Assembly (NCBI GenBank): GCA_041389145.1 | Contig: JAWKSK010000001.1 | Location: 91,668-155,667, forward strand | Reading direction: 5' to 3' | DNA length: 64,000 nucleotides | DNA from: Patescibacteria group bacterium | GTDB taxonomy: Bacteria; Patescibacteriota; Kazan-3B-28 | Part shown: piece after piece, positions 1 through 37,652 of the stretch | Numbering within the stretch: position 1 is the stretch's first letter | How the letters are laid out: every line of letters starts with the position of its first letter | Translations under genes and position numbers: made by a program | The notes under the pieces: generated by a model | Seen by the model: only the letters and a program-made list of their open reading frames with translations | Told to the model about the DNA's origin: nothing | Database searches by the model: none

Positions 1-2609
1 ACATATGTTGATTGCAGTAGCATTGGTGGTACCCAGAGATAGAGTACCCGCTACGACGGTATCTAAACCTGCGGCGGTGGTTCCAGCGGATACCAGAGTC
101 ATGCCACTTTCGTTAACTGAGAATAAGTCGGTACCCACGTCGTCCTCGATTAGGATGGCATTACCAGTGTTTTGGGATTGGTCGATGATGATATGAATAC
201 CATTACCATCTGTTCCGTTAGCATCCACAGCATCAAGGGTGATTAACAATGCATCACCTGCTGCGTTACCACCTGTGGCTGGGTTAAATGTTAATTCGAG
301 TAAGTTTCCAGTAGTAGAAGCTCCAGTTGTTTCAGTAATCACCACAGCTAAATCTGAGGCAGTTTCAATACTGTTGCCACCTTCATATGCTCCTTGGAGG
401 TCAGATACTCCTCCACCTCCACATCCAGTACATCCGTTAACAATGAGATCTCCGTTAGTATCAATAGACCAGTTAGCAGAGGTAATGATGACAGTGTCAT
501 TAACTTCACCGATGGTGATGGCATCTGCATCTGCATTGGTACCAATGGTGACAGTGTCACAGGCTGCTGAGTTACAGAGAGATAGGGAAGTGGCGGTACT
601 ATTGCCAATTGTTAATGCCCCAGCAGAACCAACATCAATCCCCTGTCCGGCGGCTACTGTAACGCCACCGGTATCGGCGGTGAGGGAGTCGGCAGTGAGG
701 TTATCTTGAACGTCTACTGCTCCTCCTGCATTGATGGTTAAAGTTGCTCCGTCTGAAGTGATACTATCCCCGTTGACGGCGAGAGTACCGGTCAGTGTAA
801 GGCCGGTAAATTGGGGAGAGTCACCAGTTCCTAATCCTAAGTTAGTACGAGCAGTAGCGGCATCATTGAGGTCGGATAGATCATTAGCAATCTGAAGATA
901 GGCACTGTTTAAAGTTCCGGTATAGTTACCGGTGGTAAGAACAGTTCCGGTACTACCAGAAAAGGTATAGGTTGCATCGCCGGACAGATCACCAACATCA
1001 ATTGTTCCATAGAAAGTACCGCCAACAGACTCAAGAATCTGCAACTGCGCATCTGCATTGTTAAAGATGATGTCAAAGGCACCAGTTTGGTTCCAGTCGG
1101 CTGTTAATGCACCGAGGGCAAGGGTTAGTGCAGCCCCTTCAGAACCGCCGTCTCCTCCAGAGATTCCAGAACCGTTGGTAATACTAGCCACATAGTTACC
1201 GGTAGTATCAGTGCTTAATGCAACTGAATCAGAAGCAATGGTTAAGGCGGTACTCCCATCAGAATCGAGAGTAGCTGTAACATCACCGGTAAAGGTGTCT
1301 CCGGATAGGATTACAGTGCCTGAAGCGTTTCGGAATGTAACGGTTCGGTCTGCTGTTGGGTCAGTAATTGCAAAAGTTAACTCATTGGTATCATCTGTTG
1401 CACCGTCAAAGGAAAGCGGGGTTGCACCTTGAATGGCACCGGTTACGGTAATTCCATCGGTTATCGCATCACCTAAGGTGAGATTTCCATACGTTGTAAT
1501 GTTCCCTGAACTATCGAGTAAGAAGTTACCAGCATCGACCACCAAGAGATCATCAAATGTTCCGGTTTGCCCGAGCGTTATAGTTCTAGCTGCAGCATCG
1601 TCACCAGAGAAGGTAAGGTTTGCACCAAGGGACGAAACGACTACTTCAGCACTGAGCGTCCCATCAGCTGATGTAACGAGATATGTAGCATCGGTTGGTG
1701 CTCCTCCTCCACCTCCACATCCAGTACATCCGTTAACGATGAGATCTCCGTTGGTATCGATAGACCAGTTAGCAGAGGTAATGATGACAGTGTCATTAGC
1801 TTCACCGATGGTGATGGCATCTGCGTCTGCATTGGTACCAATGGTAATAGTGTCACAGGCTGCTGAGTTACAGAGAGATAGGGAAGTGGCAGTACTATTG
1901 CCAATAGTTAATGCTCCAGCAGAACCAACATCAATCCCCTGTCCGGCAGCTACTGTTACTCCACCGGTATCAGCGGTGAGGGAGTCGGCAGTGAGGTTAT
2001 CTTGAACGTCTACTGCTCCTCCTGCATTGATGAAGATGATGTCAAAGGCACCAGTTTGGTTCCAGTCGGCTGTTGTTGCACCGAGGGCAAGGGTTAGTGC
2101 AGCCCCTTCAGAACCGCCGTCTCCTCCAGAGATTCCAGAACCGTTAGTAATACTAGCCACATAGTTACCGGTAGTATCAGTGCTTAATGCAACTGAATCA
2201 GAAGCAATGTTGCTGGCGGTACTCCCATCAGAATCGAGAGTAGCTGCAACATCACCGGTAAGGTGTCTCCGGATAGATTACAGTGCCTGAAGCGTTTCGG
2301 AATGTAACGGTTCGGTCTGCTGTTGGGGTCAGTAATTGCAAAAGTTAACTCATTGGTATCATCTGTTGCACCGTCAAAGGAAAGCGGGGTTGCACCTTGA
2401 ATGGCACCGGTTACAGGTAATTCCATCGGTTATCGCATCACCTAAGGGTAGAGATTTCCATACGTTGTAATGTTCCCTGAACTATCGAGTAAAGTTACCA
2501 GCATCGACCACCAAGAGATCATCAAATGTTCCGGTTTGCCCGAGCGTTATAGTTCTAGCTGCAGCATCGTCACCAGAGAAGGTAAGGTTTGCACCAAGGG
2601 ACGAAACGA
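1..2609 (-). pseudogene. Distal part of the giant tail-fibre-like surface protein (continuation of 2610..3845; runs off the window at 1). Frames are scrambled at 2278-2609, and 1-2277 is a single stop-free frame.
   Basis: Hand translation of the minus strand in 60-nt blocks gives an uninterrupted frame from 2277 to 1. It reads ...AFDIIFINAGGAVDVQDNLTADSLTADTGGVTVAAGQGIDVGSAGALTIGNSTATSLSLCNSAACDT...NGCTGCGGGGGAPTDATYLVTSADG...DLSDLNDAATARTNLGLG..., the same family as ORF 2610..3845. It is nearly Met-free, so a start-codon-based ORF track misses it. In 2278-2609 the same protein appears in shifted frames (ORFs 2184..2426 and 2482..2697). Confidence 0.6.
409..789. repeat. Cys-module repeat, copy 1 of 3 (the other copies are at ~1700-2029 and ~2668-3049)
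   Basis: Near-identical DNA at all three places. It encodes INAGGAVDVQDNLTADSLTADTGGVTVAAGQGIDVGSAGALTIGNSTATSLSLCNSAACDT(I/V)TIGTNADA(D/N)AITIGE(A/V)NDTVIITSANWSIDTNGDLIVNGCTGCGGGG. Differences are mostly third-codon-position substitutions. Confidence 0.9.
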
Positions 2610-3000
2610 CTACTTCAGCACTGAGCGTCCCATCAGCTGATGTAACGAGATATGTAAGCCGGTTGGTGCTCCTCCTCCACCTCCACATCCAGTACATCCG
2701 TTAACGATGAGATCTCCGTTGGTATCGATAGACCAGTTAGCAGAGGTAATGATGACAGTGTCATTAGCTTCACCGATGGTGATGGCATTCGCGTCTGCAT
2801 TGGTACCAATGGTAATAGTGTCACAGGCTGCTGAGTTACAGAGAGATAGGGAAGTGGCAGTACTATTGCCAATAGTTAATGCTCCAGCAGAACCAACATC
2901 AATCCCCTGTCCGGCAGCTACTGTTACTCCACCGGTATCAGCGGTGAGGGAGTCGGCAGTGAGGTTATCTTGAACGTCTACTGCTCCTCCTGCATTGATG
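1054..3000. repeat. Tandem duplication of a ~969-bp unit (about 1054-2022 and 2023-2990) inside the giant surface-protein gene
   Basis: The string tgcattg occurs at 1054, 2023 and 2991 (spacings 969 and 968). Segment 2033-2690 repeats 1064-1700 almost base for base. The junction at ~2023-2035 joins ...cctgcattgatg to aagatgatgtcaaagg across the shared gcattg microhomology. Confidence 0.9.
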
Positions 3001-3845
3001 GTTAAAGTTGCTCCGTCTGAAGTGATACTATCCCCGTTGACGGCGAGAGTACCTCCTAAAACAGTATTTCCACTAGAATCTACAGACCAGTTTCCAGCAT
3101 CAATTACAACGACATCATCAAATGAGTTGGTTTGTCCCAGGGTAATTGTTCTAGCAGCCGAATCATCTCCTGCAAAGGTGAGGTTGGCGGCAAGACTGGA
3201 GGTGACAACTTCATTGGTGAGAGTACCGTTTGCGGATGTGACGAGATATGTAGCATCGGTTGGTGCTCCTCCTCCACCTCCACCGGAAGCAGCTACCCAT
3301 GAACCACTGGTGTAAACGTAAATAGTATTATCACCGGTATTAAAGTAAATTCTTCCTTCTCTAAGCACAGAACTGCTGCTGGCACTTGGTGCAGAGGCAG
3401 CAGTTTCAATACCACCTGCCCTAAAGGCATAAGCAGCTGAATTAATCTTGGTTCGAGGAGACATCTCTCCATCCGATTCAATCTCGGTGGAAATGTAATA
3501 GGTGGTATCAAAATCTAGATCGAGGGGATTAGTGGAAGCATCTACACTACCAATCACCAAGGTGAAATATCCATTAGTAACGGTGACATCACTATGAGTT
3601 TCACTGAATAGGGACGAGCCCCCGGTAAGTGCGTTATAGATGCGAATGGTGAAATCATAAGTGCCACTAAGTGCAGTACCACCTGAATCTTTTAATCGCC
3701 CCTGGTAACCCATGGTTATTGGGACATCCGCTGCAATAGCTGCTTGAGTTAACTGCAAAAACCAACCACTTGCGACAAGTAGCAGGGATAAGACGAATCC
3801 CCCGATTATCCTTAGCCAGAGCTCTCTTTTGGTTTTTGAAAACAT
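2610..3845 (-). CDS. N-terminal part of the giant secreted tail-fibre-like repeat protein (signal/anchor plus head domain plus first repeat)
   Basis: 411-aa ORF with a hydrophobic N-terminus (LRIIGGFVLSLLLVASGWFL). The head domain reads ITMGYQGRLKDSGGTALSGTYDFTIRIYNALTGG...SPRTKINSAAYAFRAG. A GGGGGGAP linker follows. The stop at 2610 is created by an indel near 2657: APTGLHISL is read where the paralogous copy reads APTDATYLVTSADG. Confidence 0.8.
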   Translation of the reverse strand: MFSKTKRELWLRIIGGFVLSLLLVASGWFLQLTQAAIAADVPITMGYQGRLKDSGGTALSGTYDFTIRIYNALTGGSSLFSETHSDVTVTNGYFTLVIGSVDASTNPLDLDFDTTYYISTEIESDGEMSPRTKINSAAYAFRAGGIETAASAPSASSSSVLREGRIYFNTGDNTIYVYTSGSWVAASGGGGGGAPTDATYLVTSANGTLTNEVVTSSLAANLTFAGDDSAARTITLGQTNSFDDVVVIDAGNWSVDSSGNTVLGGTLAVNGDSITSDGATLTINAGGAVDVQDNLTADSLTADTGGVTVAAGQGIDVGSAGALTIGNSTATSLSLCNSAACDTITIGTNADANAITIGEANDTVIITSANWSIDTNGDLIVNGCTGCGGGGGAPTGLHISLHQLMGRSVLK

Positions 3846-3920: not shown

Positions 3921-5144
3921 CTATGTTTCCGACCTTTTTTTGCGATTTTTTATAACCAAAATCAACAATAAAATCAAGGCTAGTATAACCCAAATTCCGT
4001 ATTGGCAAAAGGCCGGGTAATCACAACACCAAGTGAGTTGCAATGGCAAACCACCAAGACTACAGGTTGCTTTGGATTTAGCTATTTCACGAATAGTCCC
4101 ATCTTCGTTAACAAAGAACTCGATCCATCCTTCCCTAAAGTTCTGGGCAAGATCAAAAGCTCTAACGATAACTGTGTTCTCTCCCTTAATTAGCCCCTTG
4201 AGGTCTGTTGGGCTGATTGTCTCTACAAATATTCCGTCATTTACTTGAAGCTCATAGCGTCCAATGCCGGAAGTTGCATCAGTAGTACTGAACCGCAATG
4301 CTAGTTGATTATCGTCCCCTACTTCAAGGAATGGTTCGAAGCGTCGTGGAGCAGTTTTGTCGTTTTGGATTGGGTAATGAAGGGTGATTGTTTCAGTATC
4401 AGAAAGCTTGGTGGTTAGATGAAAGTAAAATATTCCATCCTTTAATTTGGGGATGTTAACCTCCCGTTCAGTAGTTGCCTTTTTTCCGATTCCGTCTGGA
4501 TTTGTATCAAACGACCATTTGTAGTTAGATCCAACTTCGTTCCAGGTAAATGCAGCGTGCTGTTGTGAAAACCAACTATCACTACTTGGATGAGTTGGAC
4601 TAATTATTGTTAATTTTTGACCGGATGGGGAAGTGGGCACCACCTGTGCATCACCAATGTTGACGATAACTGAGTTCAGACTGCCGGTATTTATCTTCTC
4701 AACACCTCCAGAAATTGCTCGACTGGCAGGGGAGAGAGCGACTCTTGCCTGACCTTTTGCCTTTGCACGGAAGGTGATTGTCGCGAAAGTTGTAACACTA
4801 TTTACCCCACCTGTAATAGAAAAGCCACCTCCGGATAATACTCCATTGTTGTTGAGATAGTTACCTGGCGAGGTGTTGTTTAATGGTCCTGATAACTGAA
4901 AGTTGATAGCTTCCACTAAATCACTAGAGTACTGAACCACAGATCTTGCAGTATCGATATTCTCGCCATTAGGGTTAAGGGATACACGAATTGCAAAATT
5001 AGAACCTATTCCCACGTTTTGTGAGGTAGGAGAGAGAGACATGGAAGCATTCCCAGCAGCAAAAACAGTAGGTGAGAGACTGGTAATTAATACCAGAGAG
5101 GTAATAAAGTTTAAAATTGGATGCCAGAGTTTATTCATGCTCAT
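3921..5144 (-). CDS. Membrane-anchored cohesin-domain surface protein (N-terminal signal peptide, cohesin-like domain, C-terminal TM anchor)
   Basis: 407 aa. Signal peptide: ILNFITSLVLITSLSPTVFAAG. Cohesin-like segment: SLSPTSQNVGIGSNFAIRVSLNPNGENIDTARSVVQYSSDLVEAINFQ...FATITFRAKAKGQARVAL. The SPTHPSSDSWF motif is present. The C-terminus has a Cys-rich stretch, a TM helix (IWVILALILLLILVI) and KNRKKRSET. Confidence 0.6.
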   Translation of the reverse strand: MSMNKLWHPILNFITSLVLITSLSPTVFAAGNASMSLSPTSQNVGIGSNFAIRVSLNPNGENIDTARSVVQYSSDLVEAINFQLSGPLNNTSPGNYLNNNGVLSGGGFSITGGVNSVTTFATITFRAKAKGQARVALSPASRAISGGVEKINTGSLNSVIVNIGDAQVVPTSPSGQKLTIISPTHPSSDSWFSQQHAAFTWNEVGSNYKWSFDTNPDGIGKKATTEREVNIPKLKDGIFYFHLTTKLSDTETITLHYPIQNDKTAPRRFEPFLEVGDDNQLALRFSTTDATSGIGRYELQVNDGIFVETISPTDLKGLIKGENTVIVRAFDLAQNFREGWIEFFVNEDGTIREIAKSKATCSLGGLPLQLTWCCDYPAFCQYGIWVILALILLLILVIKNRKKRSET

Positions 5145-5147
5145 TCA

Positions 5148-5885
5148 TTATTCCACACTCCAATATGAAGCCAAAAGACTAAGATCATAGTCATCGGTTA
5201 TACCATCCCTATTCAAATCGGTATCACAGCTGTTTCGTGAATTCCAAGCACGGGCTAACAAGGACAAATCATAGTCATCTGACTTCCCGTCCCCGTTTAT
5301 ATCTCCCATCCGATGTAAGGCAAGATTTACCTCGACCGCAGCAGAACTCTTTCCTTGTAAATCACGACCAAAAAAGTCGTATAGAGTGGATTCGTTATTA
5401 TTTATCCAAACAGTTTTTTCCCAATGAGTTTCATCTGGGAAATAGAATCCTGCAAGATCTCCTCTAACAAACATATATATAAGGTTTTTGGTTTTAGTAC
5501 CGGTAAAGTGAACTAAGTTGTCATATACAACCGTACAACCAACATTATCCACTGTAATCTTTCCAACCTGAGCTGGTGCGCCTCCTCCACCACCAGCTGT
5601 TGATGTTGTGGCACTGGTTGATTCAATACGGGTAGGTGAGCCTTGTTCGTTTCCATAACTAGAACTAGTTACACTACCCACGATTGGCTCAATACTACCA
5701 TCCAGGGTGTAACTGCCTGATGTTTGTCTAAACTGAGTTGGACCAGCCTGGTCGCTATCTAGGCTATAGGTTGAACTAGTTGCTGCAATAACCGGTAGGT
5801 TAAAAGCAAACACGGTAGAGAAGTAAGCCGCCAAAATTCGTAATCCGATAGAGGAGAGTTGGCTATTAGTTTTTGGTCCTCGCAT
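5148..5885 (-). CDS. Secreted protein with a C-terminal type-I dockerin (two EF-hand-like repeats)
   Basis: 245 aa with an N-terminal signal sequence and a GGGGGAP linker. The C-terminus reads GDINGDGKSDDYDLSLLARAWN...TDLNRDGITDDYDLSLLASYW, which is the duplicated DxNxDGxxxxxDxxxL dockerin signature. Confidence 0.7.
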   Translation of the reverse strand: MRGPKTNSQLSSIGLRILAAYFSTVFAFNLPVIAATSSTYSLDSDQAGPTQFRQTSGSYTLDGSIEPIVGSVTSSSYGNEQGSPTRIESTSATTSTAGGGGGAPAQVGKITVDNVGCTVVYDNLVHFTGTKTKNLIYMFVRGDLAGFYFPDETHWEKTVWINNNESTLYDFFGRDLQGKSSAAVEVNLALHRMGDINGDGKSDDYDLSLLARAWNSRNSCDTDLNRDGITDDYDLSLLASYWSVE

Positions 5886-5891
5886 TGCTTA

Positions 5892-5897
5892 ATTGTA
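5892..5897 (-). promoter_or_regulatory. -10 box TACAAT placed 6 nt before the ATG of the dockerin gene (leaderless-type promoter)
   Basis: Minus strand reads gcgttacaattaagcaATG. There is no Shine-Dalgarno between the box and the start codon. Confidence 0.35.
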
Positions 5898-6123
5898 ACG
5901 CAAATTACAGATTAGATGAATTAACCAATAAATATTTTAGGTCTCTTCAGTTGGTTAAAAAATTCAAAAATAATTCAGTGTTCTTTTTTGAACTGTGAAT
6001 GATTTTGATTTCTAGTGTTTCAATATGATCTAAAATGTGGACCCTACCTACCAGGACATTTTTTGAACTATTTGTCAAGTTGGTGTTTCGATGACTGCCT
6101 AAAAAATGCAGTTTTATAGCTAA

Positions 6124-6144
6124 ATACCGGCATATTGCCGGTAT
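6124..6144 (-). terminator. Hairpin downstream of the propeller-protein gene
   Basis: 9-bp stem ataccggca/tgccggtat with loop tat. No clear T-run, so this is only terminator-like. Confidence 0.3.
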
Positions 6145-6245
6145 CTTGCATTTAACTGATTAATTCTAAGGTGATTTTTACTGTATCTGTTAGCTCTCTC
6201 CCCTGTTGTAAAAATCCGCTCTGGAGGCTATTTCTTATTTTTGAC

Positions 6246-9200
6246 CTATTCGACAATTATTTTCCAGAAGATATCGCTGGTTGGGAGTACTTTCCCCTGT
6301 TTATCTACCTGTTGTGCCCATGCATCGAACTCTTTTACCAATTCAACGTAGTATAAGTAGGTGCCTGGTTGTATATCTGATTTGAGCTGAAGTGACCAGT
6401 CTAGGTTGAATACTTCACCTGGTGCGACTGGATCTCCGTTGTAGATATCAAAGCGATTTGATTCACCATCTGGATTATGAACAAAGCTTGCCGAGCCTAA
6501 CCAGTCGTATATTACATCTCTTGGATTGCCTGATCCTACTCTAAGCTGATGCCCTCCACGGAATGGGGCTAATTCTTCGATTAAGTCTTTCGCTCCATAT
6601 AGAACCAATGACTTTGGATCAGTAGCACGATTTATCAATTCGAGATTGAGTGTGATACTATCCCCGGCATTTGCTCTTATTACGTGAGCATCTCCTTCAA
6701 CGGTCCCATTTTGCTTCTGCCATTCGTAGTAGAATGGTGTACTGAATGATTCAAAGGTAGATTCGACTGAATCTCCAAGTACAGACTGTAACCCTTTGAG
6801 GATTTTATCAAGAGTATCATCGTCAAGTTTTGCGTTGTCTGAAACCTTAGAGTTGTAGACAATTGAGTCCATTAGAACACGTCGAATGGCTACGTTTTTA
6901 ATATCGTAGAAAAGAACTTTTACGTCGTATCTGGCTCCGTCTTTACATGGAATTGCCCCTGGTGCATCTGGACCACATAGTTTCCATGATTTCGTTTGCT
7001 GAACTGGCTCAAGGATTGGGAATCTAGGAGCTATATTGTCGTTATATACAAGCATTGAGAAGGCTTCGTCTGGGTTATAGACAAACTTTAGACTTACATC
7101 TGCACTATTTGTAAGCTTAGCTCCGTTATTAATAACTACTGCCCAGCTGTTTTCATCAAAGCCACCTTTAGCGTCTTCATCATTACCAGCACCGGTATCT
7201 CCTGTTCCGGTTTCACCTGTACCTGTTTCGCCTGTGGATTCACCTCCACCAGAGGATTCTCCTCCACCTCCTGAGCCACCACCCCCACCAGAGGTACCAC
7301 CCGAGCCTGAATTACCACCGATAACCACAAATGCAAGACCGTATTTCGTATTGGCATTGGTCCACTCTCCTGCTAGACCTGAATCGTCAATACCTCTCAC
7401 TCGCCACTGAAATCCGTCATCAAGTTCAAATTCATCACCTTCTGCTCCCACTGTGTATGTTCCACTACCTGCAGCTTGGCCTACTCTAAATGATCTCTGT
7501 CCCTGAGAACCTAATGCAGAAGTATAGTCAATTACCGGACTTTGAAACAGAACTGTATCGTCAATCTGAATTTGATATTTCAAGGTATCCCCGGTATCGT
7601 CATCACTCAATGTAAATTGCATCAATGGATTAACTTCTTCTGTTTGTCCATAGTTTACAACCTCAGGTGGACCAAGATTGGTTGGTGCATTCGGACTTGA
7701 GTTACCAGATGCAAACTTTGCAAAATACCCGTGCCGATTACTACTGTATGCGCCACCTCCTGCTAGGATAGTGAAGCTTCCACCAATTACCGCTTCACCT
7801 TCATTGAAGGTTCTCAATGCATACCCAACACCACCATCACCACTAGGATCTGGATCAAAGTCAACGTCGGCTGTATTTGGATCGGCTCCGGTTAGATCAA
7901 ATCCACTAAAAAGGTCTGGGCCAACTCCATTGTTGCCTGACACATACAGTACGTTGTCATCAATATAGATATCATAAATTGTATTTGTTAGTTGAGGATT
8001 CCAACTATCGAGCGAGGAGTCTGCTATAGCAATAGACCCTGCAGATGTTCTAGATGTCCCCCCAATGGTAGTAAAATCTCCACCTAGGTATAGAATTCCT
8101 GATCTAAGCCCAAGGGAATAAACGTCACCTCCTGCAATAGTGGCACTTAATGACGTTGGAGTACTTGGTGTTCCACCTGACAAATCGTAGGCAGCAACGT
8201 TGGTGCGAGCAGTTGCACCCGAATTGGCAAACTCACCTCCTAAGTAAACAGTACTGCCACTAATTAAAATATCGCGAACGTTACCATCTAAATTTGGATC
8301 CCAAGAAGTAATAGTGTCGTCTGAGGTGGTGTATGATGCTGCCCGATTTCTTGTTGATCCCCCACTGTTTACGGTTGTAAATGTACCTCCGATATAAACA
8401 ATTGAGTCGTCGCTATTCAATTTTATGTCATAGACAATTCCATTTGTTGCGGGATTCCAAGACTGAAGTGTTCCATCGCTAGTTGCAAGGGCGGCTCCAT
8501 CGCCTCTTGATGATCCATTCACTGATGAAAAACTTCCGCCAATGTACAGAGTTGAATCATCGCTGGACAGAGCTACTGAGTAGACGATTCCGGTTGTAAG
8601 TCCAGATGGGGCAAAGTTGGTTGGTTCACCAGTACTTAGATCAATGGCTGCAATCCTATTTCTGGTAATAGCATTGGTCATTAGGAAGGTTCCACCAATA
8701 AATACATTGGTGCCGTTGGCAGCAATTGCGTATACAGTGTTGTCAGTTTCTGGGGCAAATGAGGTTTCGTCACCGTTAGCATCGACTGCCATAATCTTGC
8801 TCCGGCTTACTCCGGATCCAGTTGTAAAGGCGCCTCCGATATAGATCGTAGAACTATTCACCATGACGCGTTCAACGGTGCTACTCATGTTTGGATTAAA
8901 GGTAGTAGCTGCATCTGGATCTGCATCACCTAAATCAAAGGCTGCAATTCTACTTCTAGAAGAACCTCCGATTGAGATAAAGGTTCCACCAACGTATAAA
9001 ATATCTCCATCTAGATCAATTGAGTTGACCTGACCGCTAGTAGCGTTAGGGTTAAAGTCTGCAAGAACTGTACCACCTGAATCAAAACCGGCTAGGCGAT
9101 TTCTGGTTGTGGCACCGTTTACAGTTGTAAAAGAACCTCCGGCATATAAGTTATTACTATGGACTGCCAAGGTATACACGGCATTGTTAGCAACGTCTGG

Positions 9201-9938
9201 ATCAAATGAGGTTGCAGTTGACGGTGTACCACTTGATAAATCAAAGGCAGCAATACGATTACGAGTTGTTCCACTATTAACATCGGTAAACTGGCCTCCT
9301 GCGTACAAAATACTTCCATCTGCTGCTAGTGCCCGAACTGTACCATTCATATTTGGATCAAATGAGGTAGCCAGCCCAGTTGCTGTACTAACAGCTGCAA
9401 GATTGGTTCTACTGGCTCCGCCGATAGTTGTAAACACACCTCCTACATAAAGAGTGGTACCAGTTAAATATAATGCATAGACCTGTGGAGCTAGACTGGT
9501 GATTCCAGCATTCCAGGTAGTATCAAGTGATCCGTCAGAATTAATATGAGCCAGTGCTGCGTAATCAGTGTCACCGTCTACTTCATCAAATGTACCTCCG
9601 ACATACCAACCACCAGATCCATCGTTGATTGCGATAAATACTGATGTAGTGTTAAATTTTGCAGTTGATGAGAGAACTTCGCTAGTTGAAGCTGAAACAG
9701 TTGCCCCAAAACCTGTGTTGTAACCAAGTTTAGTAAATTCACCGACAATATATGCAGTGGATTCATCAGAGCTAATTGCGATATCACGGATGTTATCGTT
9801 TGCAATCCACCATGATGTGTTTGCTAAATCTGCTGGCACCTGTGCAGCCTGAATGGGTTGGATGGAGTTGGTGAATACGGTACCAATTATCAGTGAGGTG
9901 ATAATTAGAAATGATAATTGTTTTTGGAACTTGAACAT
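6246..9938 (-). CDS. Giant secreted protein with ~13-14 delta-60/DUF5122-type beta-propeller blades, a Gly/Ser/Thr/Glu linker and an uncharacterised C-terminal region
   Basis: 1230 aa. Signal peptide: LSFLIITSLIIGTVFTNSIQPIQA. The blade motif (L/V)Y(V/I/A)GGxFTxxxGxxRxxxAAxD recurs, e.g. LYVGGVFTTIGGASRTNLAAV, LYAGGSFTTVNGATTRNRLAGFD, LYIGGSFSSVNGSSRGDGAAL. The linker reads GGNSGSGGTSGGGGGSGGGGESSGGGESTGETGTGETGTGDTGAG. Confidence 0.75.
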   Translation of the reverse strand: MFKFQKQLSFLIITSLIIGTVFTNSIQPIQAAQVPADLANTSWWIANDNIRDIAISSDESTAYIVGEFTKLGYNTGFGATVSASTSEVLSSTAKFNTTSVFIAINDGSGGWYVGGTFDEVDGDTDYAALAHINSDGSLDTTWNAGITSLAPQVYALYLTGTTLYVGGVFTTIGGASRTNLAAVSTATGLATSFDPNMNGTVRALAADGSILYAGGQFTDVNSGTTRNRIAAFDLSSGTPSTATSFDPDVANNAVYTLAVHSNNLYAGGSFTTVNGATTRNRLAGFDSGGTVLADFNPNATSGQVNSIDLDGDILYVGGTFISIGGSSRSRIAAFDLGDADPDAATTFNPNMSSTVERVMVNSSTIYIGGAFTTGSGVSRSKIMAVDANGDETSFAPETDNTVYAIAANGTNVFIGGTFLMTNAITRNRIAAIDLSTGEPTNFAPSGLTTGIVYSVALSSDDSTLYIGGSFSSVNGSSRGDGAALATSDGTLQSWNPATNGIVYDIKLNSDDSIVYIGGTFTTVNSGGSTRNRAASYTTSDDTITSWDPNLDGNVRDILISGSTVYLGGEFANSGATARTNVAAYDLSGGTPSTPTSLSATIAGGDVYSLGLRSGILYLGGDFTTIGGTSRTSAGSIAIADSSLDSWNPQLTNTIYDIYIDDNVLYVSGNNGVGPDLFSGFDLTGADPNTADVDFDPDPSGDGGVGYALRTFNEGEAVIGGSFTILAGGGAYSSNRHGYFAKFASGNSSPNAPTNLGPPEVVNYGQTEEVNPLMQFTLSDDDTGDTLKYQIQIDDTVLFQSPVIDYTSALGSQGQRSFRVGQAAGSGTYTVGAEGDEFELDDGFQWRVRGIDDSGLAGEWTNANTKYGLAFVVIGGNSGSGGTSGGGGGSGGGGESSGGGESTGETGTGETGTGDTGAGNDEDAKGGFDENSWAVVINNGAKLTNSADVSLKFVYNPDEAFSMLVYNDNIAPRFPILEPVQQTKSWKLCGPDAPGAIPCKDGARYDVKVLFYDIKNVAIRRVLMDSIVYNSKVSDNAKLDDDTLDKILKGLQSVLGDSVESTFESFSTPFYYEWQKQNGTVEGDAHVIRANAGDSITLNLELINRATDPKSLVLYGAKDLIEELAPFRGGHQLRVGSGNPRDVIYDWLGSASFVHNPDGESNRFDIYNGDPVAPGEVFNLDWSLQLKSDIQPGTYLYYVELVKEFDAWAQQVDKQGKVLPTSDIFWKIIVE

Positions 9939-14643: not shown

Positions 14644-15225
14644 TTAACCCCGAAGGGCTAAGGCGAAGATTTTAGTCCAGTTATCCCCCGGACTTGAACG
14701 CATCAATATATCTAAGTACTCGGGTGTGAAGGACTGATACCAAAACTCACCATACTGAATCAGATCTTCCCGAATTTCGACTGCTTGTTCCCTGTTCGGA
14801 GCAAATCCGACTGAGATATGAGGCAGTGGTAGTCCGGTGACTGAGTTGGGAGATGCTTCAAATCCAAGCTCAACCAGATTGCTATACAGATGTGTGTACA
14901 GATTGGATAACCAGTCCTCTCGTTTCACTTGCGCAACAATTGCATAGCGTTTGTGATCTGGAGGGTTGCAGTTGCGTGGGACTTCCAGAATTTGAAGTCC
15001 GCTAAGCTTAACCATGAGCGATGTAGTGGGCTGCTTGCACATATCCAACGCCTGGGTTAACGATGAGAGATTTACTATGTCCCAAGGTATTTTCCCAGGT
15101 GTAATTACGGTTAGATGCAATCTTGAATTTGGTTGTGGAAGGCCGCATTCCGTAAGCGCACGAATGATTAGATTAGTGATTTGAGGATCTACCCTAATCG
15201 ATGCATAAAGGTGCTTTAACTCCAT
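14644..15225 (-). CDS. 2H phosphoesterase superfamily protein (LigT/2',5'-RNA-ligase-like)
   Basis: 193 aa with two HxT/S motifs at the expected spacing: RLHLTVITPG and LPHISVGFAP. The gene looks GC-richer than its neighbours by eye. Confidence 0.5.
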   Translation of the reverse strand: MELKHLYASIRVDPQITNLIIRALTECGLPQPNSRLHLTVITPGKIPWDIVNLSSLTQALDMCKQPTTSLMVKLSGLQILEVPRNCNPPDHKRYAIVAQVKREDWLSNLYTHLYSNLVELGFEASPNSVTGLPLPHISVGFAPNREQAVEIREDLIQYGEFWYQSFTPEYLDILMRSSPGDNWTKIFALALRG

Positions 15226-15355
15226 TAATACCTCCTTTTAATGGACACTCTATTCTAGTGCAGAAGCACCTCCTATGAACAGTATGGTTTTCATACATGA
15301 AGCAAAAACAAAGCCAACACAGCCTTAATCCCATACCTTAAACTATAATCAGGAC

Positions 15356-16795
15356 TTAGACGTGTCCTTCGTCCATTATTGCTTCCTCGATAATATCAAC
15401 CTGCGCTTCTGTATCATGATCTATGATCTTAACTTTTTTCCATTTGCCAAGCCCAAACCAGATGCTTGCGACTATAGCAGAACCAACATTTGCAATTGCA
15501 AAAGACCACCAAATACCATCCTCAGCAAAGCCTAAGTATCTTGTCAAAATGAAGATTAACAAAAGCTTAAAGACAAACAGGTCAATAAGTCCGATGACCA
15601 GGGAGGAGGACATATCCCCTGCCCCACGAAGAGCACCTAATACCACCATCTGAACACCGATGAAACCTAATGTGAAGGCAATGATCCTAATAAAGTGAGC
15701 GGATGCACTAATAGTTTGTATGTTATTGGGAACAAACAGTGCAGCGATTGGTGCAGCAAGATAATATACAGCAAGACCTAGAATAGTGAGCACACTAAAG
15801 GTTGCAGCTACACCATATTTTGCAGTTTGTTCAGCATGGTTGTGTCGTTGGGCTCCAATATTTTGACCAACCAGGGTCGATACTGCATCAGCTAATCCAT
15901 TAGCAGGGATGATAAAGAAGCTCATGAGTCGACCACCAATACCATAGGCTGCAAGAGCTTGGGTTCCGAATCCAGAAACTAGAAATGTAATTGCTGTGAA
16001 ACCTAAGGCTTGGGTACCCTGCTGAATTGAAGCTGGTAATCCTAACTTCACCATACGCATGATGAGGGGTGGGTTAAGTCTAAAATCTTGCCAGGTAAGA
16101 CGGATGTCATATTTTCCTGTTAATAAGAAGCCAATACTAATAACAAAGGCTAATGTCTGTGTTGCAATGGTTGCGGCAGCGGCACCCGCTACACCCATTG
16201 GAGGAATAGGTCCCCAACCAAAAATAAAGAGTGGATCAAAGATAAGGTTAAGGAGAACTGTACCAGCAACAATATACATTGGGATTTTTACCTCACCCAC
16301 GCCCCTCATAAGGGCCTGTGTAGCAAAGAATCCGAAGAATGAGACAAGTCCGATAAAGGTAATTTGGAGATAGTTAATCGCACCACCAAATACTTCAGGG
16401 GCTGGATTCATTAGACTAATTGCTGGCCCAGTTAGGAAATAGCCGATTATTGAAAGAACTGCAGAAATAATGGCAGTCATAATGATTGCTTGTCCGGCAA
16501 CCGCGTTGAGTTGAGAGTAGTTTTTACTACCTTTGTATTGAGCAACGAGAATGGTTCCAGCGATTGCCAAACCACCACCTAATGCAATCATTAAAAAGAT
16601 AAATGGAAAGCTTAAGGATACAGCAGCAACTGCCTCTGGCCCCAGTCTTCCAACCCAAAAAGTATCAATGATTTGATACGCAGTTTGAAGTAAGTTAGCA
16701 AAGATAATAGGGACAGAGAGCGTAACTAATGCTTTGCCAATTGGGAGGTCAAGTAACTTAGTTTTTGTTTTCATAACAGAGTTCAATATTATCAC
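15356..16795 (-). CDS. MATE family efflux transporter
   Basis: 479 aa with 12 TM segments. The N-terminus (PIGKALVTLSVPIIFANLLQTAYQIIDTFWVGRLGPEAVAAVS) is typical of NorM/DinF-type MATE proteins. Confidence 0.85.
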   Translation of the reverse strand: MIILNSVMKTKTKLLDLPIGKALVTLSVPIIFANLLQTAYQIIDTFWVGRLGPEAVAAVSLSFPFIFLMIALGGGLAIAGTILVAQYKGSKNYSQLNAVAGQAIIMTAIISAVLSIIGYFLTGPAISLMNPAPEVFGGAINYLQITFIGLVSFFGFFATQALMRGVGEVKIPMYIVAGTVLLNLIFDPLFIFGWGPIPPMGVAGAAAATIATQTLAFVISIGFLLTGKYDIRLTWQDFRLNPPLIMRMVKLGLPASIQQGTQALGFTAITFLVSGFGTQALAAYGIGGRLMSFFIIPANGLADAVSTLVGQNIGAQRHNHAEQTAKYGVAATFSVLTILGLAVYYLAAPIAALFVPNNIQTISASAHFIRIIAFTLGFIGVQMVVLGALRGAGDMSSSLVIGLIDLFVFKLLLIFILTRYLGFAEDGIWWSFAIANVGSAIVASIWFGLGKWKKVKIIDHDTEAQVDIIEEAIMDEGHV

Positions 16796-16811
16796 AAGGA
16801 AATATACCTGG

Positions 16812-16844
16812 ATATAAAAAGAAGCTTACTTGGTAGTAGCTTCT
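16812..16844 (-). terminator. Rho-independent terminator after the Cys-rich ORF
   Basis: Stem agaagct/agcttct (16820-16826 / 16838-16844), followed on the minus strand by tttttatat. Confidence 0.5.
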
Positions 16845-16912
16845 TTAATAAAGAATGTTCGAATGAGTAGTCGCATATTCACCTCCTAGTTGGTGTGTGC
16901 TATTAAGGCTAA

Positions 16913-17167
16913 TTACAGCTCGTAATAGTGATCGAACGTGCTGTCCTGGCCGCAACCATAACAGTTGGCCTTCACGGTTATCCCTGTGAAGGTGACTTGA
17001 AGCTGAGGGATATAGTGATATCTCCTCGACTCAGTCAGTATGGTGAAAAAATTGCATCCACAATTTTCGCACCCAGCAGTAGCAATGTCATAGTACTGCT
17101 CATCGCACATTAGATCGGGATCGATCATGGAGGATCCATATGATCCATCTAGTCTTGGTAGGAACAA
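16913..17167 (-). CDS. Small Cys-rich hypothetical protein (possible zinc ribbon)
   Basis: 84 aa with a TTG start preceded by aaggagaa. Cys pairs are CENCGC and CYGCG. No family recognised. Confidence 0.4.
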   Translation of the reverse strand: MFLPRLDGSYGSSMIDPDLMCDEQYYDIATAGCENCGCNFFTILTESRRYHYIPQLQVTFTGITVKANCYGCGQDSTFDHYYEL

Positions 17168-17226
17168 ATTATTCTCCTTACAATGAGGATGGCTTTATAT
17201 TAATCTTTAATAGCTCTTTTGTCAAT

Positions 17227-17247
17227 ATAAAACCGCTCTGAGAGCGG
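17227..17247 (-). terminator. Rho-independent terminator
   Basis: Stem ccgctc/gagcgg (17233-17238 / 17242-17247), followed on the minus strand by ttttatatt. Confidence 0.5.
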
Positions 17248-17260
17248 ATTTATTATATTT

Positions 17261-17288
17261 GGCAGGCGGTAGTGAGAGAAGTTCGGAC
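17261..17288 (-). repeat. 28-nt tRNA-3'-half-like element, copy A
   Basis: Minus strand reads gtccgaacttctctcactaccgcctgcc and starts 5 nt after the stop of the Nudix pseudogene. Related copies lie at 17830-17856 and 18341-18367, with a weaker one at 17963-17980. Confidence 0.6.
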
Positions 17289-17293
17289 TGTTA

Positions 17294-17780
17294 TTACAAC
17301 TGTTTTAAGAGCTCGTAAGTTGTCATTAAATTATATAGTTTACCTTGGTTATTATCGTTATCCATAGGTTTTACTTTGTCCTTTTTATTGAATTTGATAC
17401 GTATTTCTAGAGCTTCATCAACTGGTAGCCATGTTTGAGTGAATTGAGCCTCGCCTTCATCTTTGGGAGAGTGTTGCTTAACCTCCTGTAGATGCAAGTG
17501 TCGCGGCATAGCCATTAACAACATATCGTTTCTGTTTAAGAAATTTCGATATTGATTACGGCACCAATCTCTTTACATTTTTCACTGTAACTCCAGTCTT
17601 TCTAAGTTCACGGGTAATGGCGTCTTTATCTGATTCTTTACTATCCAAACCGCCCCCAGGAAGTAAACCATCATTGAGGAGTAATACAGCATTGTCTTTT
17701 TTGATAACAACTTTAACAGTTCGACGATCTATACTGAATTGAGCTTCATCAAACTTACCAATATTACTGATAACATTCAT
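17294..17780 (-). pseudogene. Nudix hydrolase paralogue split over three reading frames
   Basis: ORF 17556..17780 has a degenerate Nudix box (LPGGGLDSKESDKDAITRELRKTG). ORF 17294..17524 carries the C-terminal part (...DEGEAQFTQTWLPVDEALE). The frames switch around 17525-17560. Confidence 0.6.
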
Positions 17781-17829
17781 AATTTCAGTATGTTATAAAA
17801 ATACTCGCTCCTGTGGCGTTTATAACGAG

Positions 17830-17856
17830 GAAGGCGGTTGTGGGAGAAGTTCGGAC
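17830..17856 (-). repeat. 28-nt tRNA-3'-half-like element, copy B
   Basis: Minus strand reads gtccgaacttctcccacaaccgccttc. It is followed by a partial copy of the tRNA-Trp terminator (17803-17818). Confidence 0.55.
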
Positions 17857-17988
17857 TACTTGTTTAAATCTTCATTCTGATCTAACAGCCTAATTTTGGA
17901 ATTCGCCAGAATTTCCTTGATGAATTCTTCTGGTGTCATCCACTGTGGGTGATGATCTTTTTCTGAGAAAGTTCGGGATTAAAAGAAT

Positions 17989-18290
17989 TTATTCACTTTG
18001 TAGCAAAGTCCCTATTTTATTGAGATTGTCTTCTGGAAAATATTGGTTTGCCTTACCAATTAACTCAATATTGTTTATTCTTGCGCCTTGAACTTCTTCC
18101 ATTGCTTCTCCCCGGCTTCATTGCTTCAATAAAATCTTCGCTTTCTACTTTTCACGGCACAGATGCAGATCGTTATCTACTCTGGCAAACCAAAATATTT
18201 CCTTGATCGTTATAGATAACTAAATAGACTTCAATTCATGTTCAGAACTTGCTGGTGGATTCCCTCCAAATTGTGATGGTTTTCATTCAT
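17989..18290 (-). pseudogene. Decayed copy of the Nudix gene at 20135..20383
   Basis: Aligns base for base with 20135-20390 (atgaatgaaaaccatcacaatttggaggg vs atggatgaaaaccatctacaatttggaggg). There is a 1-nt deletion after codon 5 and premature stops. It retains a C-terminal tail (IELIGKANQYFPEDNLNKIGTLLQSE) that the other copy lacks. Confidence 0.7.
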
Positions 18291-18340
18291 AAATTCATTA
18301 TCTCATAAAAAATACTCGATCCTGTGGCGAGTAAATTTGC

Positions 18341-18367
18341 GGCAGGCGGTCGTGGGGGAAGTTCGGA
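18341..18367 (-). repeat. 28-nt tRNA-3'-half-like element, copy C
   Basis: Minus strand reads tccgaacttcccccacgaccgcctgcc. It sits exactly where the tRNA-Trp T-arm/acceptor 3' half sits in the paralogous segment at 20434-20465. A copy of the terminator follows at 18314-18332. Confidence 0.6.
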
Positions 18368-19277
18368 AAATTAAATTAGGTTTTGCCTAATATATGTCTG
18401 GATCATTTGAGGCTTCCAGACTGTTCCAAGATTTGAAATTCTCTAATATTTCGTCATCAGTCACTCTTACCTGAATAGATACCCAAAATCTCTCCTTGTG
18501 CCGTGAACCTACTGCTAATCCTGAGATGTTGAAGCAAATCCTCTCGTTTTTATAGTAACAGGAGACCCAGACATACCTGGTTTACGAAGCATCAATATGA
18601 ATATTGGCTTGTTATCAAAATTGAGATCAATTTCAGATGCTATATGCCCAGTTTCTCTCCATATCGGAAATTTGCCTGCAGATGACTTGCCAAAGGAATC
18701 CTATAATGGATACTGGATCAGAAGGAAAACTGATATGTCATTTTTGATGATATATCCAAATTACGTAGCTCTACATCCTGATCAATCTGATCTCTAAGAT
18801 AACATCTACTTTTTCACCGTTTATCTTCTTTCCAAAGCCCATTATCATCAGAATCTACCAGAGGGTAATCTTGGAAGCCAACTACCGAGAGTCTCTTTTT
18901 ATGGTGCCTTTTGTTAGGGATTGCTCCCTTCTTTAAAGCAAGAGTCTTTAGGGTTTGGGGGTCCCGTCCAGAAACAACGTGCCAATTAGAAGGGTTAAGC
19001 ACACTTTGTCGCTATCCTCTATTGTGAAACCTGTAGCTGAAGAAAGGTATTGGTCTTCAAAAATAGCTCAAGATGTAAGGATGTCGTTGTGGACGAATTC
19101 CATTTGACCCATTTTTTGCTTAAATTTTATCCTGACTAAACATATTATTCAGGAACCTCTAAGCACTGAGGGTCTTAGTCCAGCCACTAAGCTCTGTTTA
19201 GATGTCCCCTTAACATAACTAGAAGTTTTGCTCCCGTACTTTCAGATAACAGGATTGCGCTCTAGGGAACGTTAGGA

Positions 19278-19659
19278 TCATTGTCTCCATGGATGACTGA
19301 GATATTGGGTATACGGGATGCGATCAAGGAAAATCAAATGGTACATCCAGGAATATATCTTACAATCTTTTGCCAACTGGTTTAATTGGTCCTGAAACAA
19401 GGATAATCCCTTTAACTGGGTGATTTTCAGTAGTTGTTCAATGAATCTTAGGATAGCTGGGACTCCCAAACCATGGCCTATCAGATAAATTCTCGTCCTC
19501 AATTCCTTGTTTGATCTTGCCTATCAATTTCATGAATCCACTCGGCAACCTGGGGACTTGGTCTGATTTGGCATTGGCAAAGCACAGGTATATATGTCCT
19601 GTTTTTAATTTCCCATTAACCACGGTCTCCAACCTCCATTGACCACTCCTGGAATCCAT
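19278..19659 (-). pseudogene. Frameshifted alpha/beta-hydrolase remnant (YdeN/RBBP9-like serine hydrolase)
   Basis: Two overlapping ORFs in different frames (19438..19659 and 19278..19502). The nucleophile elbow reads IGHGLG (Gly where Ser is expected). The C-terminal part is not in frame. Confidence 0.45.
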
Positions 19660-20134
19660 GAATTAAGAATACTTTTTCTATAGACTTATTTAACACTTAC
19701 CTCTGGAGTATTTTTCTCAACAACACCATAGTCACAAAAGCACCGTTCGCGATAACCAAAGAGGCTGGATATAGCACAGTGGTCAAATTGAATACCTCGG
19801 GAGAGCCATAATTCCCAATATAAACTTGATAGCAATAGAGCAAATGCTGGTACATCTTCGGTTTCAGGGTTGGAAGTAAGCTTTTCTGAACGCTGGCACG
19901 AAGCAATGACATCGATAACAGTAATCATAACCACAGACCAGATTGGATTACTCGTAAGGTACCAAGGTGGGGATGGCCAGCAAGGAAGCGACAAAGAACC
20001 ACCAGTCTTGGCAAATGAGCTGTGGGAATAGCCCTGCCAACAGCTACGAAAATAAAGCTGGCTAGGGCCGTAAGACCTGTTACCCAGGCCCCAGCACCAC
20101 CTCCCTGACACCTGAGCAAAGAAAGCAATGGCGG

Positions 20135-20383
20135 TCAATATACCCTAAGTGAGCCTAACTCAATGTTGTCTATTCTTGCGCCCGCTTCTTCCATTGCTTC
20201 CCGATTCATGGCTTCAATATGATCTTCGCCTTCTTCTACTCTTCCACCTAACAGATGCAGCTCATTATCTACTTCGCAAACCAAAATATTTCCTTGATCG
20301 TTATAGATAACTACATAGACTCCAACTCTTTGCTCAGAACTTGCTGGTGGATTCCCTCCAAATTGTAGATGGTTTTCATCCAT
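20135..20383 (-). CDS. Nudix hydrolase, 3'-truncated (82 aa)
   Basis: Intact Nudix box GGRVEEGEDHIEAMNREAMEEAG. The ORF stops at ...IELGSLRVY, about 50-60 aa short of a normal Nudix fold. Confidence 0.6.
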   Translation of the reverse strand: MDENHLQFGGNPPASSEQRVGVYVVIYNDQGNILVCEVDNELHLLGGRVEEGEDHIEAMNREAMEEAGARIDNIELGSLRVY

Positions 20384-37608: not shown

Positions 37609-37640
37609 TCTAGCCCCGGCCATAAGGCATGGGGGCTAGA
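37609..37640 (-). terminator. Strong hairpin between tuf and rpsJ (terminator/attenuator or processing stem; no T-run)
   Basis: 9-bp stem tctagcccc/ggggctaga enclosing ggccataaggcatg. Confidence 0.35.
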
Positions 37641-37652
37641 ATAGTTAGAATT

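Follow-up and report, generated by a model that had tools for sequence, protein, structure and literature searches.

Host finding and host binding by episymbiotic Patescibacteria are, according to PMC12206443, largely unknown, and work on them to date centres on type IV pili. The closest characterised systems with which the locus described here can be compared are fibres. The MAT family (mosaic adhesive trimer), as defined by Caulton et al. 2024 (PMC10769870), has a signal peptide, a beta-rich N-domain of about 130 aa and a trimeric fibre whose tip is S74 or another domain, with Bd3182 of Bdellovibrio bacteriovorus as an example of the S74 subgroup. The same authors cite phage fibres and spikes that carry S74, namely K1F endosialidase and the L-shaped tail fibre pb1 of T5, and they describe both MAT fibres and S74 phage fibres as receptor-binding proteins. 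A "tail fibre-like protein" near pam pilus operons is mentioned elsewhere for its co-localisation only (bioRxiv 10.64898/2026.03.03.709456).

The DNA analysed here is a stretch of 64,000 nt from an ultra-small member of the Patescibacteria (CPR), hereafter the window. On its minus strand, positions 1-3845 likely make up the first ~70% of one gene, located on the chromosome, whose product is a modular fibre exported by Sec. That grade is a joint one, covering a single chromosomal gene, a Sec-exported MAT-like surface fibre of the S74 type, and an apparent break in the gene that is an artefact. The C-terminus of the protein lies outside the window, and its S74 end is inferred from the orthologue P0395. 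Features read from the sequence are listed below in the direction of the gene; residue numbers are those of the reconstructed protein.

3729..3845, minus strand: start codon ATG (3843-3845) and signal peptide/anchor, aa 1-39
3411..3728, minus strand: beta-sandwich "base" N-domain, aa 40-145, from the match to NCBIfam NF053851
3267..3410, minus strand: Ser/Ala linker, beta-hairpin motif REGRIYFNTGDNTIYVYTSGSWV (3294-3362) and first putative poly-Gly hinge, GGGGGG (3267-3284)
2667..3266, minus strand: shaft unit 1, aa 194-393, with an APTDATYLV... module, a LAVNGDSITSDGATLTINAGG module and Cys module 1
2667-2894, minus strand: Cys module 1 and GGGGG, with CNSAACDT at 2817-2840 and CTGC at 2685-2696 (CTGCG match 2682-2696)
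2032..2999, minus strand: tandem duplication, copy 2 (upstream), 968 nt, absent as an extra copy from the orthologue
2262..2670, minus strand: indel patch, 8-9 indels of 1-2 nt (11 nt total), several in short homopolymers
1702..2666, minus strand: shaft unit 2 (duplicated), reconstructed aa 394-715, with FDGATDD..DPTADRTVTF, TDTTGNYV and Cys module 2 (1702-1926)
1063..2031, minus strand: tandem duplication, copy 1 (downstream), 969 nt, fully in frame and gapless against the orthologue
409..1701, minus strand: shaft unit 3, aa 716-1146, with APTDATYLV, mid, ARTNLGLG, LAVNGDS, Cys module 3 and GGGG
1072-1566, minus strand: FDGAT../TDTTGNYV "mid" module of unit 3
793-882, minus strand: ARTNLGLG segment of unit 3, DLSDLNDAATARTNLGLGTGDSPQFTGLTL
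721-783, minus strand: LAVNGDS module of unit 3
409-630, minus strand: Cys module 3, with GGGG at 409-420
1..408, minus strand: start of the distal region, aa 1147-1282, VSDLQGAYEGGNSIETAS...TTNATAINIC, running off the window

As assembled, the region translates as two open frames in different phases and not as a single ORF. The ORF at 2610-3845(-) encodes 411 aa up to a stop of the TAA/TAG type (2610-2612); the second frame, 1-2277(-), encodes 759 aa and extends past the window edge. Stops occur in all three frames between 2277 and 2610. The annotated product of the 411-aa ORF is MEZ4210186.1 (PGAP), from a MAG with locus tag R3B38_00480, and the last 16 residues of this product are out of frame. 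No entry identical to the 759-aa frame occurs among 5.8 billion proteins, and the frame was therefore missed by automated annotation. Once indels are corrected against the sister repeat copy, the reconstructed gene within the window comes to 1,282 stop-free codons. The first-pass annotation, made from the letters alone, had described one minus-strand protein of more than 1280 aa, which fits the corrected gene but not the assembled DNA. It had rightly taken 1-2277 to be open and liable to be missed by gene callers, but was mistaken in calling that part free of Met, since one Met is present.

Indels in 2262-2670 are what shifts the frame and creates the early stop at 2610-2612; they were located by aligning the repeat copy at 2032-2999 to its sister at 1063-2031. 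The duplicated unit measures 969 nt and is in frame (323 codons). Over the 409 nt of the patch, copy 2 shows zero substitutions relative to copy 1, and its indels net to only -1 nt. Against the orthologous locus, L006, copy 1 has no gap events and copy 2 has nine, while at each of the five amino-acid differences between the copies it is copy 1 that has the orthologue residue and copy 2 that deviates. Because the eight or nine indels of the patch come without a substitution, and the other copy is free of gaps against the orthologue, the division into a 411-aa ORF and a 759-aa frame most likely reflects an error of sequencing or assembly that left indels unpolished in one near-identical repeat copy. 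The extra copy of the repeat may likewise stem from faulty assembly. Phase variation and programmed frameshifting were considered and rejected, as the eight indels are scattered, all within one copy, and include no slippery or long homopolymer tract.

The orthologue P0395 is a protein of 1,826 aa encoded by one intact ORF at the syntenic locus L006 in a second genome, which is ~20-25% diverged at the DNA level with synteny kept. It is 90.8% identical to the window protein over aa 1-618, with 0 gaps. The dN/dS ratio between the two genes is 0.04 over the whole comparison and drops to 0.006 within the N-domain, and by this measure the window gene is under strong purifying selection. The reading as a single gene follows from the 1,282 corrected codons, the single ORF of P0395 in a syntenic locus and the dN/dS of 0.04. 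In P0395, Peptidase_S74 (PF13884) is found at aa 1506-1556, scoring 37 bits against a cutoff of 22, and the same model scores above its cutoff in the relatives P0256, P0257 and P0259. Compared with the SDxxxK reference motif of the Ser-Lys dyad, the SSMRYK of P0395 keeps both Ser and Lys at their positions but has a Ser where the reference has Asp. The S74 domain is followed by ~270 additional aa, among them an acidic tail of Pro/Glu. By alignment to P0395, ~870 more residues, including the S74 chaperone, should follow beyond window position 1.

It is rather unlikely that the frameshifts are real, and then very recent, and the gene a genuine pseudogene or truncated gene, which would yield no product at all or just a 411-aa stub made up of the N-domain and unit 1. 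The stop and the frame changes are present in the deposited assembly, PGAP called the 411-aa product only, and fragmentary genes at 16.8-20.1 kb of the window make gene decay in this genome conceivable. However, so many indels in so short a patch, unaccompanied by substitutions and nearly cancelling out, are not a mutational pattern; they sit exactly in the stretch over which the two copies do not otherwise differ, a setting in which reads are misplaced and polishing breaks down, and the orthologue is both intact and strongly constrained. If the split is the artefact that we take it to be, the locus offers a practical case of a repeat-rich gene cut short in a public MAG by local indel errors.

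At the N-terminus, the signal/anchor MFSKTKRELWLRIIGGFVLSLLLVASGW shows an n-region rich in K/R and a hydrophobic core as well as an AIA-AD motif (cleavage site placed by eye after AIA), and AF2 models a helix at aa 5-32. The head domain that follows runs YQGRLKDSGGTALSGTYDFTIRIYNALTGG...SPRTKINSAAYAFRAG. It matches NCBIfam model NF053851, Bdello_MAT_N, along roughly half of its length (positions 4-79 of 162), with an E-value of 1.8e-9 and a score of 35.2-37.6 bits that falls short of the curated cutoff of 60 bits; the domain is therefore a relative, not a member, of the Bdellovibrio MAT subfamily. The same model is matched by 87 of 92 homologues, and by this match the N-domain is a distant homologue of that of the Bdellovibrio MAT fibre. 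AF2 gives a beta-sandwich with a mean pLDDT of 84 for a 195-aa construct containing the domain; fold searches of PDB and BFVD with this model gave nothing significant. Homologues all carry the N-domain directly after a similar leader, and the C-termini of N-domain proteins vary (Collar, H-type lectin, F5/8-C, collagen, S74). The N-domain family comprises 23,004 cluster representatives. In the linker that follows, AF2 places strands at aa 166-185, and the motif REGRIYFNTGDNTIYVYTSGSWV is conserved in P0004, P0005, P0256 and P0395.

The shaft comprises two or three units, each ending in a CX4C...CX2C module and a poly-Gly stretch, with poly-Gly delimiters at aa 188-193, 388-392, 711-715 and 1143-1146. 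Its composition is rich in Thr/Gly/Ala/Ser/Asp, and the lag-2 alternation of hydrophobic residues comes to 0.13, compared with 0.002 +/- 0.03 for shuffled sequences. A monomer AF2 model of the shaft is mostly coil, with a pLDDT of 57.8, too low in confidence to use. Shaft modules match PHROG tail-fibre families and phage baseplate/structural genes, and occur in 93 phage records, almost every one of which carries a tail-fibre annotation; the "mid" module is found in 112 of the 136 proteins retrieved. The raw frames gave marginal matches only against PHROGs and PDB sequences, and neither window frame matched a Pfam-A family at E <= 0.1; no Pfam model exists for the N-domain or the shaft modules. 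A search of PDB with the "mid" module profile returned designed WD40 proteins only and was set aside as spurious. A metagenome scan with the last 140 aa of the window protein found three weak relatives. A scan of GTDB genomes found two distant loci only.

Each of the three Cys modules, CNSAACDT...NGCTGCGGGG, holds four Cys spaced as CX4C...42 aa...CX2C, at reconstructed residues 336/341/384/387, 659/664/707/710 and 1091/1096/1139/1142. The CX4C pair alone is conserved in nine more distant homologous proteins; the CX2C pair occurs only in the window gene and its close orthologue P0395. A cystine knot has six Cys forming three disulfides in a threaded ring, so with only four Cys per module, and CX4C alone kept in relatives, these are not the Cys knots that the first-pass annotation had named. 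Its other motifs (signal/anchor, head domain, Gly delimiters, four-Cys modules and ARTNLGLG segment) are all found in the sequence, with the qualification that the last of the supposed GGGG(G)AP delimiters reads GGGGVS. Three repeats had been proposed, and three four-Cys modules are indeed present, but the count of three reflects the extra 323-codon tandem duplication that has no counterpart in the orthologue. The overall description as tail-fibre-like holds up, given an N-domain resembling the MAT fibre model, a shaft resembling phage tail-fibre PHROGs and genes, and an orthologue with Peptidase_S74.

Taken together, the window gene probably encodes a MAT-like, S74-type surface fibre, presumably trimeric, with which a patescibacterium attaches to its host. 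By analogy with S74 fibres and MAT proteins, the chains would be exported and the C-terminal S74 domain would nucleate trimerisation, then cut itself off at the Ser-Lys dyad (SSMRYK in P0395). The N-domain would keep the fibre fixed to the cell that made it; the distal part would bind a surface structure of the host bacterium that carries the epibiont. The poly-Gly stretches may act as hinges, and the CX2C pair just ahead of each hinge could join the three chains by disulfides. In fibrillar collagen type III, an interchain cystine "knot", a close Cys pair that ends a trimeric segment, cross-links three chains; its likeness to the CX2C modules is one of analogy only, with no sequence relationship.

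That the protein instead serves the envelope structurally, as an S-layer-like or spacer fibre, or acts as an adhesin for surfaces or biofilms in general, with no recognition of a host bacterium, seems improbable. Many bacterial surface-layer proteins and giant CPR surface proteins have the same Thr/Gly/Ala/Ser/Asp-rich composition, and the huge N-domain family includes lineages not known as epibionts. Against this, receptor binding is the role both of MAT fibres, its nearest characterised relatives, and of S74 phage fibres (PMC10769870), and the family swaps its tips (lectin, collar, discoidin) in the manner typical of receptor binders.

Neighbouring genes in the window encode MscS, GDH, MatE, NusG, RpoA and SecY as well as cohesin-like and dockerin surface proteins; no capsid, terminase or tail gene is seen in this neighbourhood, and an Rfam scan of the window returned tRNAs only. 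Housekeeping neighbours and conserved synteny make the gene cellular rather than phage-borne, and, judged from leader and setting, it is a gene of the chromosome whose product is exported by Sec to the cell surface. That it is the tail-fibre gene of a phage or prophage, for a virion component, is very unlikely: the shaft modules and ARTNLGLG segment do match phage tail-fibre genes and PHROGs, and an S74 chaperone is typical of phage fibres and spikes, but the protein has a Sec signal peptide, the surrounding genes are not virion genes, the same synteny persists in a second genome despite its DNA divergence, a pattern scan of IMG/VR found no relative, and none of the viral structure models searched resembles the N-domain fold significantly. 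Scarcely tenable is the notion that one gene encodes a secreted protein of 411 aa and another, starting within 2277-2600, the remainder. It matches the ORFs as assembled, but neither a start codon nor a leader opens the 1-2277 frame, the interval encodes in shifting frames the same unit as the downstream copy, and the orthologue is continuous.

If the gene does encode a single cellular fibre, a conserved, strongly constrained, tail-fibre-like surface protein becomes a concrete candidate for a host-specificity determinant, one with a base domain in common with prey-binding Bdellovibrio fibres. Its family is without a Pfam model and annotated "hypothetical protein", even though more than 20,000 protein clusters contain its N-domain. 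We suggest, tentatively, that Patescibacteria, Omnitrophota and other ultra-small or contact-dependent lineages might use MAT-like fibres, a very large and mostly unannotated family on a common N-domain anchor, for host recognition. In the present lineage, fibre length and flexibility would be tuned by tandem duplication of whole shaft units, with poly-Gly hinges between them and Cys modules as staples, and the tip ahead of S74 would set the host.

Among other known systems, the window protein has shaft modules in common with uncharacterised giant CPR/DPANN surface proteins, along with LQxAYxxGN modules (L005); related proteins occur in Moraniibacteriota, Woesebacteria, Uhrbacteria, Saccharibacteria and Aenigmarchaeota, none functionally characterised. 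The pam-associated protein (bioRxiv 10.64898/2026.03.03.709456) can be set beside it by description only. With S74 phage fibres it has in common the Peptidase_S74 domain of P0395 and the closest relatives, and with phage tail fibres and baseplate proteins the short modules ARxNLGLG... and FEGAT..DPTADRT.T.P..SGT, a similarity limited to modules of 30-110 aa. Unlike S74 phage fibres, the window gene is, by all indications, chromosomal and its product Sec-exported, with a putative cell-anchoring N-domain in place of the virion-attachment domain.

The likeness to MAT fibres lies in several points. The signal peptide is followed at once by a beta-rich N-domain (E ~1e-9), which has no PDB structural homologue here or in PMC10769870; the protein is long (1,000-2,000 aa) and a mosaic of phage-fibre-like modules; and, as in the MAT S74 subgroup, the orthologue carries an S74 chaperone, with tips varying across the wider family. 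It differs in that its N-domain scores below the NF053851 cutoff, in the ~270 aa that P0395 adds after the S74 domain, and in the putative poly-Gly hinges and the CX4C/CX2C modules of its shaft, these hinges and modules not being described for MATs in the sections of PMC10769870 covered. The lineage that bears it, the Patescibacteria, is absent from the list of MAT-bearing taxa in that paper. The patescibacterial envelope also differs, and therefore the partner that anchors this candidate fibre at the cell surface must differ from that of MAT.

The minus strand carries an ATG at 3845 that starts a 411-residue open reading frame (ORF A) with its stop at 2610, and a second phase stays open from 2277 down to position 1, where it exits the window. 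Between 2277 and 2610 stops occur in all frames, and a translation that shifts frame there gives the same peptide as the downstream unit. The region holds a tandem duplication of 969 nt, with copies at 2032-2999 and 1063-2031. Aligned to the downstream copy, the upstream copy (2032-2999) shows eight gap events (11 nt) and 12 mismatches; every gap falls within 2262-2670, a stretch with zero substitutions. Indel repair with the sister copy as guide yields 3,846 nt, a stop-free run of 1,282 codons that contains the complete set of sequence motifs listed in the first-pass annotation. The single open frame described there exists after this repair only, and not in the assembled sequence with its two phases and intervening stops. 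The frame at 1-2277 proved free of stops (759 aa), as had been read, and the concern that gene callers may miss this part was justified: the database holds no protein identical to the 759-residue part, so annotation skipped it. ORF A has the same sequence as MEZ4210186.1, annotated as "hypothetical protein R3B38_00480" of Patescibacteria group bacterium, from a 165.8-kb MAG contig. Its final 16 residues are an out-of-frame translation, the C-terminus GLHISLHQLMGRSVLK being the out-of-frame version of DATYLVTSADGTLSAEVV (2610-2660, minus strand); the public record is therefore a truncated artefact. Two antisense ORFs over the fibre gene, 239-709 (156 aa) and 1433-2005 (190 aa) on the plus strand, are most likely spurious frames from repetitive Gly/Thr/Ala-rich coding sequence.

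An intact orthologue of 1,826 residues (P0395, from an ENA metagenome scaffold) falls in the 90%-identity cluster of ORF A, and gene order at its locus (L006) matches the window. Reconstructed residues 1-618 align gap-free to orthologue residues 1-618 at 90.8% identity, and residues 606-1282 align to 283-955 at 87.9%; the window gene thus equals the orthologue plus one additional in-frame 323-codon unit. Alignment of DNA to the orthologue requires no gap events for the downstream copy, versus nine for the upstream copy, and at all five amino-acid differences between the copies the downstream one agrees with the orthologue. Comparison of the window gene with the orthologue gives a dN/dS ratio of 0.04 over the whole and 0.006 for the N-domain, with dS above 1, and values this low mark the fibre gene as real, conserved and constrained. 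A true recent pseudogene, the reading that takes the stops at face value, seems improbable beside damage that is restricted to one repeat copy and resembles unpolished consensus error, and we hold with good confidence that the break is an artefact. Elsewhere in the window, about 3.3 kb (16800-20150) lacks any ORF longer than 150 aa and holds frameshifted gene fragments, a NUDIX hydrolase-like one (17294-17780) and an alpha/beta hydrolase-like one (about 19250-19700, with ...FLIHGF... and ...IYLIGHGLG... in different frames). This region, relevant to assembly quality, fits indel errors in a second patch or, alternatively, gene decay.

Domain layout of the reconstructed protein (residues; minus strand).
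aa 1-39: signal peptide, read by inspection; AF2 models a helix at 5-32
aa 40-145: N-domain, a beta-sandwich; mean pLDDT 84 for the 195-aa construct
aa 146-187: Ser/Ala linker; beta-hairpin motif at 162-184
aa 188-193: poly-Gly hinge
aa 194-393: shaft unit 1
aa 394-715: shaft unit 2
aa 716-1146: shaft unit 3
aa 1147-1282: distal region, truncated by the window edge

Every shaft unit is closed by a module of the form ...GNSTATSLSLCNSAACDTITIG...NGCTGCGGGG(G). With four Cys in each, these modules are not the cystine knots they had been taken for. Nine homologous proteins at greater distance keep the CX4C pair (CNS[AT]xCDT) in their modules; the CX2C pair, which immediately precedes the poly-Gly hinge, is common only to the window gene and its close orthologue. 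A reasonable hypothesis is that CX4C forms a local disulfide loop and that CX2C is a candidate interchain staple. No Pfam model matches the fibre sequence in the window.

The N-domain matches NCBIfam model NF053851 ([quoted passage not shown]) with E 1.8e-9 and 37.6 bits, below the model's cutoff of 60 bits; 87 of 92 homologues match it also. Fold comparison of its AF2 model to PDB and BFVD gave no significant match, and for PDB this agrees with the mosaic adhesive trimer (MAT) paper (PMC10769870), which states that no PDB homologue exists for the MAT N-domain. An exhaustive search puts the number of cluster representatives with the N-domain at 23,004 for E <= 1e-3 and 5,246 for E <= 1e-10. 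In these proteins, 150-3,200 aa long, the domain nearly always begins 20-60 residues in from the N-terminus. Named matches come from Patescibacteria lineages, Omnitrophota and Chloroflexota, and among the parts found at their C-termini are phage tail Collar, H-type lectin, F5/8-C, collagen repeats and membrane anchors. Peptidase_S74 scores above the Pfam cutoff at the end of the orthologue and of the closest full-length relatives (P0256, P0257 and P0259), and a home-made profile detects an S74-like domain in 12 of 53 long representatives. S74 proteins normally finish with this chaperone, and an extension past it is unusual. P0395 continues for about 270 residues beyond the domain (aa 1560-1826; L006 ~14680-15481), with a beta-rich segment (…FDQEYKYQPIVTVTPRG…FNWHAF…) as well as a tail that is long, acidic and rich in Pro/Glu; P0256 and P0257 have the same extension. 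In Candidatus Omnitrophica bacterium CG11 (PCWA01000008.1), two N-domain genes lie within about 3.5 kb (1620-2555 and 4882-5736 of locus L001), which suggests that in Omnitrophota the fibre family has expanded through local paralogues.

The "mid" module of the shaft, FEGAT..E..L....DPTADRT.T.P..SGT plus LSGDTFTGDVTATL...TDTTGNYV, is shared by 112 of the 136 CPR/DPANN proteins retrieved, some with S74, Mtd_N or collagen domains. The window's copy matches the tail fibre protein family PHROG 38058 at E 2.7e-4, homologues of the module match several tail-fibre, baseplate-wedge and minor-tail PHROGs, and tblastn locates the module in cyanophage SS120-1 and, in Pelagibacter phage HTVC008M, in the baseplate wedge initiator. 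With the ARTNLGLG segment as query, 93 phage records match at E <= 1 (best 4e-5), the annotated ones nearly all tail fibres. The proposed phage-fibre resemblance thus stands for short modules but does not extend to the gene itself, which lies outside any phage; a phage-encoded gene is very unlikely given the chromosomal setting, the gene order shared with L006 and a pattern scan of IMG/VR that turned up no relative. On a 1.46-Mb metagenome contig, with neighbours parA/parB-like by eye, a 2,513-aa surface protein (L005, 5030-12571) has repeated SNTLQAAYDAGN... and LSLGTTNATAINL modules resembling the distal portion of the window gene, together with a coiled coil close to its C-terminus; it seems to draw on the same pool of modules for a different architecture.

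Three genes for secreted proteins lie directly upstream of the fibre gene, on its strand, and keep their order at the orthologous locus (L006 3917-9926).

Genes upstream of the fibre gene.
within 3921-9938, minus strand: 1,230-aa DUF5122/Rax2-type beta-propeller protein, secreted
within 3921-9938, minus strand: 245-aa dockerin protein, secreted
within 3921-9938, minus strand: 407-aa protein with C-terminal membrane anchor, secreted; weak cohesin match

They could encode a cohesin-dockerin surface assembly in a Patescibacterium. Beyond them the chromosome continues with MscS, glutamate dehydrogenase, MatE, NusG, RpoA and SecY. All ORFs of at least 150 aa starting at 2.6-60 kb are on the minus strand except 37629-38861 and 47703-48353, both of which overlap longer minus-strand ORFs. 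The first overlaps 37653-38840 (minus strand; both about 400 aa) almost completely, so one of that pair is spurious. By size alone, the large minus-strand ORFs at 14.6-60 kb are a putative ribosomal-protein/rpoBC cluster, and seven tRNA genes (Leu x3, Cys, Gly, Phe, Val) lie among small ORFs at 55130-58498 (minus strand).

The fibre gene encodes an exported protein under strong constraint, with a MAT-like base domain, a phage-fibre-like modular shaft and, in the orthologue, an S74 end. By analogy with established S74 and MAT proteins, the S74 domain would drive trimer folding and cleave itself off afterwards, the N-domain would keep the fibre attached to the cell, and the distal region would bind a target surface. 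Patescibacteria being obligate epibionts, the surface bound would most likely be that of the host bacterium. The biology behind these steps is that of the MAT paper (PMC10769870), which lists MAT-like proteins from Oligoflexia, PVC, Alpha- and Deltaproteobacteria, the FCB group and Omnitrophica, a list from which Patescibacteria are absent. A 2026 preprint (bioRxiv 10.64898/2026.03.03.709456) makes bare mention of a "tail fibre-like protein" in the neighbourhood of CPR pilus operons. The fibre gene is real, ordinary in kind and poorly annotated, its break most likely an assembly artefact. What is new is a Patescibacterial member of the known MAT-like/S74 kind of fibre, distinguished here by its hinge-and-Cys modular shaft and a strain-specific unit duplication.
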